This document shows positions 40,455 through 51,418 of a DNA stretch of 64,000 nt, piece after piece; within the stretch, counting starts at the first letter, position 1; every line of letters begins with the position of its first letter. Source of the stretch: a virus (lineage: Duplodnaviria; Caudoviricetes); the IMG/VR virus record IMGVR_UViG_3300028591_000143, positions 1-64,000 of that record; one strand, 5' to 3'. The notes under the pieces were generated by a model. It was not told the origin of the DNA. It did no database searches and was given only the letters and a program-made list of their open reading frames with translations. The translations under genes and the position numbers were made by a program.

Positions 40455-41494
40455 CCTCCATCAATAATACCTCTTAATTCAGTGTGCCATCCGAAGGGTT
40501 TTCCTGTAGTTCTATCAACGACTCCACAATTTCCATTACTAAAAAATACTTCATTACTATAGACTAAGCATTTTGTGTAATCTTCTGGATCTTTCTTCTC
40601 ACTATCATCAGCTCTTTTAAATTTTACTAAATCCCCCAGTCTAAAATTGTTAGGCATTACAATTCCAGAGAGAGTATAGTTTGCATTATAATCTGTATTA
40701 AATAAAGTAGTATTATAGAGAAAATTATCTATTAAGTTATCATATCCGGATCTACATATAAAATAATCAGCCCCTAATACAGAAGTTACATTTTTGGGAG
40801 GAGTATAACTAGATTCGGTCCAAGGATTTATGATAGGATAATTTTGTGTACGAGAATAAGTTAGGGTATAAGGTTCAATATTAGTTAAGTCCCCAGTACC
40901 CCCTCCTAAAATTTCTGGTATATTTTCATCTATATTTTCGTCCAACATTCTATGATTAATCCCTATAATATCTTTTATAACTAATCCATCCCATCCAAAT
41001 CCGAAGATAGATCCTTGCTTATAAGAATAACAAAGACGTTTACAGAAGTTAAATGGTGTTTCGCAAAGTTGATGAAGGAGTTGGTTATTATTTTGATCTG
41101 AGTCGGTTCTTATATCGAGGTTAGAATAGAGATAATTAAGAGCATCATTAATATCCTCATAAGTTCTAGATTCTCGTATACTAAAAAAACCAGGATCAGA
41201 ACAACAAATAAAGCCAATCTGAAGATTATTTCCGTCGTATTCTCTATGATTAATAAACATGGGGACTTCAAAACAAAAACCGCCATCATTATTGTCTTCG
41301 ATTATAATGGTTCCCGTATTTTGTTCTGTGATCCATTCCATTACACCTTCATCTTGTGGGAATATTAATGATGCTGTTCCCGTAGGTAAATCCCCTCCTA
41401 AAACTTCCTTCATTTGCAACCATTCTATACCAAAACCCTTCTCTGTCCACTCTTTAATATCAAAACTTATATCTTGAGAATTAGTCTGTTTCAT
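40409..41494 (-). CDS. Baseplate hub protein (T4 gp27 / P2 gpD-like)
   Basis: Size, position after the LysM/gp53-like gene, and HQLCETPFNFCKRL and FRLGDLVKF segments. Confidence 0.55.
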   Translation of the reverse strand: MKQTNSQDISFDIKEWTEKGFGIEWLQMKEVLGGDLPTGTASLIFPQDEGVMEWITEQNTGTIIIEDNNDGGFCFEVPMFINHREYDGNNLQIGFICCSDPGFFSIRESRTYEDINDALNYLYSNLDIRTDSDQNNNQLLHQLCETPFNFCKRLCYSYKQGSIFGFGWDGLVIKDIIGINHRMLDENIDENIPEILGGGTGDLTNIEPYTLTYSRTQNYPIINPWTESSYTPPKNVTSVLGADYFICRSGYDNLIDNFLYNTTLFNTDYNANYTLSGIVMPNNFRLGDLVKFKRADDSEKKDPEDYTKCLVYSNEVFFSNGNCGVVDRTTGKPFGWHTELRGIIDGGWTQTQKEQEILWKT

Positions 41495-41796
41495 ATCATT
41501 CCTAGTATTGAATCAAGTGTAGTTTTAGGAAGAACTCTAAGAATTGTGCCCTTTGAAAAACTTGATAATGGAAGTTTAACTTGCAGGAGAAGTAATCCGA
41601 GATAAGAAGAAGAACCGTAAATATCCTGTGCTATAAGATCTGGGCGAAATTCATGTATAGTGATCTCAAAACTCTCCCTATATAAGCTTTGATCGTTTAT
41701 CAGGGAGAGTAATAGAGAATCATATACATCATACCCGGAGATATAGTTGCTAGGATCATTCTTCGCTGTTATTATTTTATTCTTTTTTTTAAACAT
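41491..41796 (-). CDS. Baseplate wedge LysM-like protein (T4 gp53-like)
   Basis: EFRPDLIAQDIYGSSSY...KGTILRVLP signature. Confidence 0.75.
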   Translation of the reverse strand: MFKKKNKIITAKNDPSNYISGYDVYDSLLLSLINDQSLYRESFEITIHEFRPDLIAQDIYGSSSYLGLLLLQVKLPLSSFSKGTILRVLPKTTLDSILGMI

Positions 41797-47612: not shown

Positions 47613-47852
47613 ATCTGACTTTGTTGAATATCGTATAAATCCCGTCCGTAGTGCTTCTTCTTTTGTCATAGTAAATACAATCTTAGTATCCATTTTCTTA
47701 TATTTTCCGGACGACATTAATACACCCTCACGGATTTTATAGGTTGTTTTGTTTCTCGTTTGTTTTCCTTGGGGGTATCGTAGTTTGAATCCTATATACC
47801 CCCTGTCGGACTTTATTTTTATTCTTTTCTGTATTTTGCGTTTATTGTTCAA
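47604..47852 (-). CDS. Small basic hypothetical protein
   Basis: 82-aa Lys/Arg-rich ORF overlapping the helicase B stop. Confidence 0.45.
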   Translation of the reverse strand: MNNKRKIQKRIKIKSDRGYIGFKLRYPQGKQTRNKTTYKIREGVLMSSGKYKKMDTKIVFTMTKEEALRTGFIRYSTKSDPY

Positions 47853-49942
47853 GGTTCAGTTAGGTCTTTTATTGTTTCTTCTTTTATCGAGACTATTAGA
47901 TATCCTTTGTCTCGTTTTCCTGTCTCTTCGTTTTTTATGTCGACGGTTTTGATTATAAAGTAATCTCCAAGATCCACTGCCTTCGGAGTTTTTGAATACC
48001 CAACAGAATCATATAGATGTTTTAGTTTCTTTTTTATTTCTGTCTTTGTATATTTTTCTCCAACAGTAAAGGTATCTATAATTAATGTCCCTATATCTAT
48101 TGATTGATTCCCTATTATTCCCTCATATGCTTTCTTCATGTCTGTTGCATCAAATCTTAAGGCTCTCATTCTATCTGGCCCTAAAACAACATAGTAATTA
48201 TTAAATGATTCAGGTAAATGTGGTAATAATGAGTTAGCAACACTTTCCTCTAGAGAACATAGGTACCGTAATTTATCAGGAAGGTATTTATAAGAATATA
48301 GTTTATCGAGATAAAAATTAATATCATCTACTTCTCCTATTGTTTTTGATAACGAAGAAAATACATTAAACCTATCCTTATAATCCACTTGTTGTACATC
48401 GAAAGCCCTCATTTCTGATATCATCACCAATTTATTAAAAACTGGTTGTAAATCTGATCCAGCATGTTTATTTACTGCTACAAAATTCTTTCTATAACTA
48501 CTTAATTTTGTTAACTCTAAATATGCACTTGCTAAATCATGTTTGGCACTACTATTAGAGGTATTATATGCATCGAGTAGATTATTAGTAACTCTCTCTT
48601 TATTATCTAAATAATCTTTAAACTTTTCAGTCGTAATTACTTTCGTATTGAGTTTATAAAATAATTCTGCTCTGTTTTTCCAAGGATTCTCATCTAATCT
48701 CTGTCTTCCAAGAATCTGTGGTAAGTCTAGAGTAATATCAACTGATAAACAATCCACATTAGCATCAGAAAATATAAAAGACCTGGCATTAGTAGAATAA
48801 AAGTCTGCTCCAAGGTACACTGTTCTGGTACAAAGGGTAAACATTTTGTGGGGTTCTCCTTCTTTTGGAACAGTACCTATACACCTCTTTGTCTTATTTA
48901 CTGACACATCTCCTGCTTTCTTTAGTGCAGTTTTTATTTTTCTCTCATTTTCATCATTTCCTGAACAAAGAATATTAGCTTCATCTAATTTGAGACCACA
49001 CTTTTTAATTATATCACAGAGATTTTTGACAGAATTAATATAAAACACAGCCTCTTTACTATATACTTCCTCAAAACTGCCATCTTCTTTTTGTCGTGTG
49101 AGCTTTTCAAATTTGCCCTCTCTGTAGGTATTAATGATCCTCTCTACTTCTCCAATCATACTTTTCTTTGAAGAAATTAGCTTGGTTTTTATATAAGGTT
49201 TAATAACTCTTCCTGGATTTTCACTAGTCCAATCAAGCTCATAGTAGGGAAGGTCTTTGTATTCATCAAGTTGTTCCAGATATGTGTCGATCATTGGTGT
49301 AGCAGAAAGATAAATTACATTATCTAATCCTTTTAGATTATACATGAATTCATTTTCAGTATCGGGCTTGAAGCGTGAATCACAGAAAATACTCTGAAAC
49401 TCATCAACTATAATTTTATATTTTTTTATTGAATCTCCAAGCGTCTCTTTTATCCTCCGAAAAGAATCATAGGTGACCATAAACTTCGGAGACCTATGGT
49501 ATTTGATATAACAAAGTGAGACATGATCTTCTATCTTTTTCTTAAGTTGCTTGGTGTATTCCTCTGCCCTTTTCTTTGTTTTTTCTTCTTTTTCCTTCTC
49601 TGTGTCTCCATCTAATAAACCTTTCTTGGACTTTGAATCCTTTGAAATGTCCTTATCATAATTCTCAAAAGAGTTATATTCATTCCTTAGGTATAGTAGA
49701 TTTTCTTGATCTTTATGTTGTTCCTCTTTATTTTCAAGAAGGACTAATCTAGGACTACAAAGAATGACTGGATAACTGTTTGTGAGCCAATACTCAGTAT
49801 ATCCACATCCGGTAATAGTTTTGTTCATTATGTAGGATTGATTCTCCGGAACTAGGTCCCTCAATCTTTTACCCTCTTCAAGGTTGTCCCAATCATTGAT
49901 ATACCTAATATCTCTGGGAACTTTAATTACGTATTTCTCCAT
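47849..49942 (-). CDS. SF2 (DEAD/DEAH-like) helicase paralogue B
   Basis: KTITGCGYT, ILCSPR, VTYDS, VDEFQSIF, YLSATP, HKMFTLCTRT.YLGADFYST, DLPQILGRQRL and KTPKAVDLGDYF, all shared with paralogue A. Confidence 0.8.
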   Translation of the reverse strand: MEKYVIKVPRDIRYINDWDNLEEGKRLRDLVPENQSYIMNKTITGCGYTEYWLTNSYPVILCSPRLVLLENKEEQHKDQENLLYLRNEYNSFENYDKDISKDSKSKKGLLDGDTEKEKEEKTKKRAEEYTKQLKKKIEDHVSLCYIKYHRSPKFMVTYDSFRRIKETLGDSIKKYKIIVDEFQSIFCDSRFKPDTENEFMYNLKGLDNVIYLSATPMIDTYLEQLDEYKDLPYYELDWTSENPGRVIKPYIKTKLISSKKSMIGEVERIINTYREGKFEKLTRQKEDGSFEEVYSKEAVFYINSVKNLCDIIKKCGLKLDEANILCSGNDENERKIKTALKKAGDVSVNKTKRCIGTVPKEGEPHKMFTLCTRTVYLGADFYSTNARSFIFSDANVDCLSVDITLDLPQILGRQRLDENPWKNRAELFYKLNTKVITTEKFKDYLDNKERVTNNLLDAYNTSNSSAKHDLASAYLELTKLSSYRKNFVAVNKHAGSDLQPVFNKLVMISEMRAFDVQQVDYKDRFNVFSSLSKTIGEVDDINFYLDKLYSYKYLPDKLRYLCSLEESVANSLLPHLPESFNNYYVVLGPDRMRALRFDATDMKKAYEGIIGNQSIDIGTLIIDTFTVGEKYTKTEIKKKLKHLYDSVGYSKTPKAVDLGDYFIIKTVDIKNEETGKRDKGYLIVSIKEETIKDLTEP

Positions 49943-50670
49943 ATATGTAATAGTTTTTAATTATTTTAATTTCTGTTTAATACAGATTCCAGTTTTAATA
50001 AAGGAGCTTCTTATATAGAAACTTCCTTAAATATTTTTATTACATATATAAGGGTTTGAGAAAAAATGAGGGTAAAAAAGTGGTCGAAGAGGTTTTGTTA
50101 GAAGAGAAAATAACTAAAAACCCCTTAAAATACCCCTAAAAGTGCTATTTTAAGTGGTCGCTGCGACAAAAGGGTGTGAAACAAAGGAGCTATCCTAATA
50201 TAATACCTATCTATTAAAAATGTCGCAATATTATGTAAGAGTACTTTATTTTAAGTGGTCATAAAAAATTGAGGGTACACTTTTTCGAGCTAACAGAGGA
50301 GCATCCGGTAATATAATGGAACAAAAAGTGTATTTAGTGCAGTTATAAAAAAGTAATATTGTTTCCCTCGTTATAATCCCCTTTGGGGCTTACAACTTCG
50401 AAAATTCCCCAATAATTTTGTAGAAGAGGCGTAGCCTATTCCTACAATGATAACCCTGTAGCAACTCAAGTGGGTCCCACTGAAACCGACGTAGGAGGTT
50501 TTATGGGCTTGAGTTGTGGAAGGGTGTCAGGAGGGAAGCTCCTGTGTTAGCGAGAATTAGGTCCGTAGTTGTAATCGAATACCACGCCTTAAAGCGCTAC
50601 GGACGATATGAAAAAACATATAATTAAAGTTCCCGACCGATATCACATCGACCGAGAGTGTGATTAGGTC
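49943..50670. other. Structured non-coding region upstream of helicase B (origin-like or ncRNA)
   Basis: Direct repeats TATTTTAAGTGGTC (50146, 50247), two inverted-box pairs and nested hairpins over 50418-50604. Confidence 0.65.
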
Positions 50671-50671
50671 A

Positions 50672-51418
50672 TTAGAGGTTATCCCAACTTCTTTTGAAAT
50701 GCTCAAATGCCAAACTAAGTTGGACATCAGATCTATCGGTTCCATCTGCATCTACTCCGTTTTCCAGGTTTTAATAATAAATTTTGTTTATTACTTAGAC
50801 TATATCTTTTTCTTCTGTACATAGTCGTTGAGCCCATAAAAGGGTTGCTGATTAAGTTTTTCCTTTTCCAGCAGTTCTCAGATTTCTTAATATTTTTTTT
50901 ATATTAAGGACAAATTATTTATCGAGCGGAGCGTCCATAATCACGCAGTTATAGAAGTGGATAGTACGGACATCTAGACGAGAGGAGTTAGTGAGATAGA
51001 GTTCGCAATCCGTAACCAAGTCATCTTTACGGAAGCTATATTTAGTATCTCTATCAGCAATTTTTTGTTTCCAGTCATCCACGAAATAGGAGATAGCCTG
51101 ATCTTCTCTATCCACGAAGCTGAGGGTGAGCTGACCGGAAGTATTCTGACCTGTTTGTTGTCTAATCACGAAATTTCCTCTCATTCTTTTTTCGAAGCCA
51201 GACACAGAACTATCTATACCGACCTGAACGCTATTAAGTCTTGCGTTTATAATAGTGTCGCCGGGGTAATAAACAATTCTAGGGCCGTTATTCAGGAACT
51301 TAAATTCCCACATATCACCCCTTAGAAACTCTTTATTATCGTCTCTATAGGTGGATGTGTAGTCAATAAAGTGCATACGTCCATTACTTTGACGGACTAA
51401 TTCTGTTACTGTTGCCAT
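50672..51418 (-). CDS. Tail tube protein, split gene: exon 1 51418-50921 (166 codons) + exon 2 50764-50672; 196 aa spliced
   Basis: gp19-like motifs (LTLSFVD...FVDDW...RTIHFYNC). Joining gives ...MDAPLD|ENGVDADGTDRSDVQLSLAFEHFKRSWDNL*, restoring the terminal beta strand of the tube fold. Confidence 0.85.
50765..50920 (-). ncRNA. Miniature group I intron (156 nt), no internal ORF
   Basis: Exon ends in U, with U.G pair in P1 (GAU|AAA-uaa-UUUGUC). Conserved blocks: P GAACUGCUGGAAA, Q AAUCAGCAA, R CUCAACGACUA, S AAGAUAUAGUCU. P2 and P9 hairpins, terminal G, and in-frame exon joining. Confidence 0.9.

Follow-up and report, generated by a model that had tools for sequence, protein, structure and literature searches.

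Evidence for a spliced, P8-less group I intron in a tail tube gene from a giant ruminant-gut phage

The stretch of DNA analyzed here (64,000 nt, hereafter referred to as the window) belongs to a 97.6-kb parent record that was estimated to be 26% complete and derives from a ruminant gut phage with an estimated genome of about 375 kb. On the minus strand, directly after an 823-aa ORF that probably encodes the sheath and returned no family match, Pfam included, lies a tail tube gene whose first 166 codons (exon 1, 50921-51418) end in ...CTC GAT. When read without interruption, the listed ORF (51418 to 50915) encodes 167 amino acids with the C-terminus ...IMDAPLDK before the stop codon, and it matched PHROG 45 ('tail tube') with E=2.7e-8. 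Translation of positions 50764 to 50672 in one frame (exon 2, 30 codons plus TAA) yields ENGVDADGTDRSDVQLSLAFEHFKRSWDNL followed by a stop codon; excision of the intervening 50920 to 50765 lets GAT meet GAA and affords a product of 196 aa, and exon 2 is in frame in 10 of 10 intron-bearing loci. An earlier note on this DNA, made from the sequence alone, had proposed exactly this joining of a tube ORF that stops at DAPLDK to a downstream exon, and its coordinates and sequence were confirmed. A DNA search of the tube region against 50,697 GenBank phage records gave no match.

At the protein level, a search of 5.8 billion proteins retrieved 390 matches to the tube, nearly all of them 195-196 aa in length. 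Uninterrupted homologues read ...DAPLDENGVDADGTDR... straight across the proposed joint (DAPLD↓ENG; ...DAPLD↓ENGVDADG..., with the arrow marking the joint), and the closest of them, P0001, is collinear with the joined exons at 98% identity and reads ...IMDAPLDENGVDADGTDR..., while P0004, P0010, P0011 and P0015 comprise 166 aa and end in DAPLDK as the window ORF does. The intron boundaries coincide with the boundaries of the protein alignments to the base. For P0001, an AlphaFold model (mean pLDDT 65.8) matched the contractile-tail tube chains of T4, P1, AFP and PVC with a Foldseek probability of 1.00 and TM values of 0.5-0.68; exon 2 supplies residues 179-193, two C-terminal beta-strands located in the best-predicted part of the model. 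Judged by the PHROG match and this predicted structure, the host gene falls into the contractile-tail tube family, either as the main tube or as a tube-like baseplate or cap paralogue. One 220-aa homologue, P0034, departs after ...KYEHYSANY into an unrelated C-terminal sequence, a break that may reflect a further insertion close to the 3' end of the gene encoding it.

The segment between the exons (50765-50920, minus strand; 156 nt) contains no ORF and can be arranged as a group I intron without P8, an assignment to which Rfam RF00028, a custom covariance model (R1) and an RNA contig contribute. P1 (50909-50923) is formed by GAU↓AAA (50923-50918) and UUUGUC (50914-50909) around a UAA loop and is invariant in the nine variants described below. 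It includes the wobble pair U50921.G50911 at the 5' splice site, in which the U is the last base of exon 1, and P10 (G.U, A-U, A-U) can form between the guide bases U50914-50912 and the GAA with which exon 2 opens. P2 (50886-50908) abuts P1 and consists of 8 bp, CUUAAUAU / AUAUUAAG, closed by an A-rich loop; both the fold and a compensatory change support it. After J2/3 (AAA), the 5' strand of P3, UCUG (50879-50882), pairs with CAGA at 50817-50814 and is invariant among tube introns. J3/4 (AGAAC) leads into a region (50846-50873) comprising the 6-bp P4 (UGCUGG/UCAGCA), J4/5 (AAA), P5 (AGG/CUU) and J5/4 (AA), followed by P6 (50833-50844; CCC/GGG with a 6-nt loop), for which a compensatory change was likewise observed. 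J6/7 (CUCAAC) precedes the 5' strand of P7, GACUA (50822-50826), and matches with it the Rfam consensus UCAAaGACUA. J7/3 (UGUA) is followed by P3' CAGA (50814-50817), by the 7-nt linker AGAAAAA (50807-50813) at the place where P8 would be, and by J8/7 GAUA with P7' UAGUC (50798-50806), identical to the Rfam consensus GAUAUAGUC. The 3' part is made up of the P9 hairpin (50775-50793; UAAUAAA/UUUAUUA, 7 bp), again supported by the fold and a compensatory change, and the tail UUAAAACCUG, whose last base is the terminal (omega) G at 50765, a G in all variants.

Several hallmarks of group I introns are thus combined in this short segment. P3 (UCUG/CAGA) and P7 (GACUA/UAGUC) cross each other and form a pseudoknot, and the P4-P5-P6 domain is recognizable from P5 and P6 helices of 3-4 bp each and an A-rich J4/5. 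The P8 helix of the group I core is missing, as only 7 unpaired nt separate P3' from J8/7, and the tube intron also contains no P7.1/P7.2 and no other peripheral domains. The intron RNA has a G+C content of 29%, P3, P5 and P6 measure 3-4 bp, and P1 includes 3 bp with the exon. Folding of the intron alone gave a minimum free energy of -29.2 kcal/mol (z=-4.1) and recovered P2, P4-P5, P6 and P9, which constitute the nested part of the structure. All helices described by the earlier note (P1 with its U.G pair, P2, P3, P4, P5, P6, P7 and P9) as well as the terminal G are present as proposed there, and its central observation, that nothing except AGAAAAA lies between P3' and J8/7, is upheld by the sequence, by the RF00028 alignment and by nine of nine variants. 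Model alignment, splice boundaries, fold and recurrence among variants together go beyond a chance resemblance.

In a 1.5-kb search, RF00028 aligned over model positions 1-253 with 21.3 bits (E=0.009), with the strongest agreement in P4, J6/7-P7 and J8/7-P7', while the P8 stretch of 59 model positions was aligned to 1 nt of the tube intron. The window intron lies below the curated gathering cut-off of RF00028 (50 bits), as does a variant in G002 scoring 40.6 bits; Rfam yielded no group I match when the gathering threshold was applied, nor when the whole window was searched at E<=0.5. Because the RF00028 match is lost at both the gathering threshold and the scale of the window, routine annotation would miss the tube intron. 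The custom model R1, applied to the 97.6-kb parent record, recovered the tube intron with 177.6 bits and found no second copy of it there; another R1 match at 41442-41590 (11.8 bits, E 1.4) was regarded as noise. Within the window, the motif AAGATATAGTC has its sole exact match in the intron. Four matches of an IMG/VR pattern scan (L009-L011 and L034) lie inside coding sequence and were rejected as chance hits.

Nine distinct variants of the tube intron, 154-164 nt in length, were collected from ENA, Logan, JGI and IMG/VR assemblies of separate samples, starting from contigs that code for the 166-aa forms and from pattern scans of IMG/VR and JGI metagenomes. The spacer from P3' to GAUAUAGUC amounts to exactly 7 nt in all nine and reads AGAAAAA, AGAAAAU, AGCAAAU or AGCGAAU. 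Standard pairs occupied 98.4% of pair cells in the model-based alignment A4, compared with 31-51% when the 3' partners were slid. Compensatory changes between A-U and G-C were found in P2 (four of nine variants) and in P9, and between C-G and U-A in P6 (three of nine); in P7, a C to U change in one variant preserves pairing as G.U. Apart from this change, P1, P3, P4 and P7 are invariant in the tube set and hence show no covariation within it, although P3 covaries across introns, with UCUG/CAGA in the tube gene and UUUG/CAAA in an RNA polymerase beta' intron described below. The second exon was compared across 10 intron-bearing loci, where 22 of its 32 variable sites fall on codon position 3 and pairwise codon differences comprise 373 synonymous and 122 non-synonymous changes. 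The open frame together with this synonymous excess led to the conclusion that exon 2 is translated in intron-bearing genomes.

Further contigs of X1, the DNA run of the likely source sample, and of the RNA runs X4 and X17 match only a 35-nt core of the intron, extending from P7 to P7'. The flanks of such core-matching contigs led to G001, a complete 353-kb phage record, in which an intron without P8 and without P2, again with an AGAAAAA linker, splits an RNA polymerase beta' gene at a site shortly before NADFDGD (about 169.3-170.0 kb of G001; about 6288-6995 of L012, with variants in L016, L019 and L020). This intron carries a 192-aa ORF in the loop of P6; a Pfam search of the ORF gave no match, and its C-terminal half looked GIY-YIG-like by eye. 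Another P8-less and P2-less intron of about 165 nt with the linker AGUAAAA (L035, about 2330-2165, minus strand) resides in an unrelated gene on a 76.5-kb IMG/VR contig of another phage from another sample. A sister intron of about 179 nt was located in a relative's tube gene (L022, about 811-989), where it is inserted after ...FFNC, 8 codons upstream of the site used in the window; it retains a 4-bp mini-P8 (UUUG..CAAA) and scored 30.3 bits with RF00028. Across the tube, L022, RNA polymerase beta' and L035 introns, J3/4-P4, J6/7-P7 and J8/7-P7' are near-identical. This comparison suggests that the P8-less form arose through loss of a mini-P8 hairpin such as that seen in L022. All P8-less members have 7 nt in place of P8, and the possibility that P2, located at the same end of P3, generally stands in for P8 was discarded given that the RNA polymerase beta' and L035 introns contain neither helix.

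G001 holds at least six further group I matches of 140-340 nt and consequently at least seven group I-type introns altogether. The G001 alignments that were inspected exhibit short P8 hairpins and P7.1/7.2-type insertions between P7 and P3'. Some of the G001 introns occur in clusters (L026, L028 and L030-L033) of two to three within about 2 kb, around 161.9-162.7 and 219.0-220.9 kb, and a single one of the clustered introns exceeds the Rfam cut-off. The tube intron is not a one-off and is a member of a family of P8-less mini-introns with at least three gene contexts. The earlier note had described it as a miniature intron lacking P8; it is indeed real, P8-less and unusually small, though not unique, being one of this family of phage introns.

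The introns in T4 td, nrdB and sunY, in orf142 of Staphylococcus phage Twort and in the SPO1 DNA polymerase gene are of the phage type (IA2-like), which RF00028 represents, span 250-1000 nt and possess P8 and usually P7.1/P7.2. The tube intron resembles them in J6/7-P7 (UCAACGACUA), J8/7-P7' (GAUAUAGUC), the A-rich J4/5, the U.G pair, the terminal G and its position in an essential phage gene, whereas it differs in its length of 156 nt, in the absence of P8 and P7.1/7.2 and in its covariance-model score (21 bits vs the cut-off of 50). Among small natural group I introns that self-splice, the one usually taken as benchmark is the 205-nt IC3 intron of Azoarcus pre-tRNA-Ile, which features GC-rich helices and uses P8 as the receptor of the L2 tetraloop. 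P1 abuts P2 in both, but the tube intron has no P8, is rich in A and U and falls about 50 nt short of the Azoarcus length. The minimum number of helices needed for group I catalysis has been probed with engineered RNAs such as the sunY mini-ribozymes and the Tetrahymena deletion series; in contrast to these laboratory constructs, the tube intron is natural, conserved and apparently functional. Full-text literature searches retrieved no account of a group I intron that naturally lacks P8, and searches for smallest, minimal or miniature phage group I introns found nothing relevant. GIR1, finally, is a branching or hydrolytic ribozyme within a twin-ribozyme intron that has no P1 and performs no exon ligation of its own. 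A GIR1-like or lariat-capping reading of the tube intron was rejected, as P1 with its U.G pair, the terminal G and the ligated exons contradict it.

Short introns are already on record for jumbo phages of the gut. According to the 2026 Sci Adv report on the Jug phages, 2513 group I introns averaging about 206 nt occur in 136 genomes, and metatranscriptome reads back the splicing of 37 out of 76 (PMC12880540). The genomes are given as 360-402 kb, with essential genes split by many short group I introns (PMC12880540; preprint PMC12363816). Its text reports counts and lengths, compares the introns with 'group I-like ribozymes' of the GIR1 type, and contains neither secondary structures nor a statement on P8 nor a tube-gene intron, the word 'tube' having 0 occurrences (PMC12880540). 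The phage studied here comes from ruminants and resembles the Jug phages in its estimated giant size and in a short intron within an essential gene; G001 likewise carries at least seven introns of group I type. With small introns already described as common in gut jumbo phages (PMC12880540), the tube intron is not a singular case.

Support for splicing came from metatranscriptome run X4, which originates from sheep gut and from a study other than that of the likely source sample. A 562-nt contig of this run corresponds to 51363..50921 joined to 50764..50646 with 0 mismatches to either exon, skipping exactly 156 nt at a joint without positional ambiguity (no base could be assigned to both exons). 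Precise exon ligation is accordingly represented by one assembled contig, in an RNA library that could contain DNA. The joined form was not found in the DNA source run X1. In the RNA runs X16-X18, only parts of exon 1 or a divergent allele were covered, which makes these runs uninformative for the tube intron, and X17 includes a joined form whose junction (TTA GAC) carries synonymous changes. Since its exon 1 junction codon ends in C, this form most likely stems from an intron-less relative. The simplest reading of the X4 contig, by contrast, is a spliced mRNA of a phage with the genotype of the window, and in vivo excision of the intron from the tube mRNA is almost certain. The junction CTCGAT↓GAAAAC that the earlier note had predicted for RNA is thereby present in X4. 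Of the other checks that it had suggested, comparison with intron-less tube genes shows homologues of 195-196 aa running through the proposed joint, and a group I covariance model, RF00028, aligns end to end, though with 21.3 bits it stays under the cut-off of 50.

Taken together, we consider it very probable that the tube gene of this giant ruminant-gut phage contains a genuine, spliced group I intron without P8 and without an ORF, and three other accounts of the locus have to be weighed against this conclusion. The X4 contig might have been assembled from an intron-less allele, as mRNA or DNA, with the intron-bearing gene making a 167-aa product or being a pseudogene. Such alleles do occur (L007 and most homologues), the X17 form with TTA GAC is probably one of them, and carry-over of DNA into Logan RNA contigs is conceivable; yet the X4 contig is identical to the window exons over 562 nt, while L007, the P0001-encoding allele that is the nearest intron-less DNA found, departs from the joined exons at 46 of 591 nt (7.8%), and L005, the closest relative with the intron, still shows 17 differences from the window exons. 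As exon 2 is moreover under coding selection in all intron-bearing genomes and encodes the conserved C-terminal strands of the tube fold, we regard this account as improbable. Still less credit is given to translational bypassing, in which the ribosome would skip the 156 nt as in T4 gene 60, or to separate expression of two ORFs: the stop codon two codons past the take-off position superficially recalls gene 60, but a matching landing codon is missing, the gap is three times that of gene 60, the insert holds the full set of group I core elements, and an RNA contig without the insert exists. The chance that a longer intron with intact P8 was collapsed during assembly appears close to negligible. 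Copies of the intron core exist elsewhere in the community, and it is at this repeated core inside the intron that the Logan unitigs of X1 break, leaving parts of the intron without contig cover, but the nine variants from ENA, Logan, JGI and IMG/VR all contain exactly 7 nt. As these variants are independent, an assembly deletion at 50805-50815, which the earlier note had wished to see eliminated, is excluded.

For the spliced P8-less intron, we propose that a phage-type core has been pared down to P1, P2, P3, P4, a 3-bp P5, a 3-bp P6, P7 and P9, with the 7-nt purine-rich linker taking the place of the P8 hairpin. The pre-mRNA is cut at GAU↓...G↓GAA, presumably by guanosine-initiated two-step transesterification, in which P1 (3 exon bp and 3 intron bp, with the U.G pair) sets the 5' site and the terminal G together with the 3-bp P10 sets the 3' site, and the 196-aa tube protein is thereby restored. 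We infer group I chemistry and an RNA core that is sufficient by itself or needs only general chaperoning. The main competing view, an alternative already raised by the earlier note, accepts a real intron that is spliced in vivo and holds that the P8-less core depends on a phage or host protein, such as a maturase-like factor or a chaperone, or on another trans-acting factor. The core lacks P8 and all peripheral stabilizers and is built from very short, AU-rich helices, from which marginal stability can be argued, so that folding may need help; in addition, the other G001 introns that were inspected retain P8 and P7.1/7.2-type insertions, and the L022 sister intron keeps its mini-P8. On the other side, the same core recurs in different phages and at least three genes, whether P2 is present or not (two of the introns have none), which argues against a dedicated, gene-specific partner; no candidate cofactor was found, and the phage group I introns studied to date (T4 td, nrdB and sunY, Twort, SPO1) self-splice in vitro. 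Dependence on a trans-acting factor is consequently a serious possibility, albeit one we would expect to fail somewhat more readily than to hold. Protein-independent self-splicing of the tube intron in vitro could, in our estimation, turn out either way. The far-reaching version, according to which the tube intron and its P8-less relatives would be fully self-sufficient and the smallest natural self-splicing group I introns, with P8 being dispensable and replaced by a 7-nt strap, is put forward tentatively, its prospects being just short of even.

Much work on how RNA folds and catalyses uses group I introns as its reference system, and their P3-P8 stack is treated as part of the invariant core. 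If the tube intron is self-sufficient, P8, a helix of every textbook core, would be replaceable by a purine-rich strap of 7 nt. A natural P8-less intron would offer a ready-made minimal scaffold for structural work (cryo-EM, chemical probing), and the tube intron could suit the engineering of compact splicing or circularizing ribozymes. For annotation, the consequence is that the tube gene is mis-annotated as truncated because standard covariance models miss the intron (21 vs 50 bits), and the same error is expected in many genomes of giant gut phages. The tube intron is therefore of interest to ribozyme specialists and useful for annotation, while being neither unique nor categorically new.

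Beyond the intron, the sequence downstream of the tube gene displays features of its own. About 730 nt, including 49943-50360, separate the tube gene from the next ORF on the minus strand (49942..47849; 697 aa, no PHROG match), an unusual length for an intergenic gap in the late region of a phage. An unannotated segment of about 300 nt that begins directly behind the tube stop codon (50360-50675, minus strand) reaches a G+C content of up to 49%, compared with about 30% in the surroundings, and is predicted to be very strongly structured (MFE -99 kcal/mol, z=-4.5), with no Rfam family assigned to this segment. The element is common to the window and L005, and other lineages have two simple hairpins instead. 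A 30-nt piece of it recurs twice elsewhere in the parent record (G000), at 77328-77357 and 78189-78218, with 87% identity.
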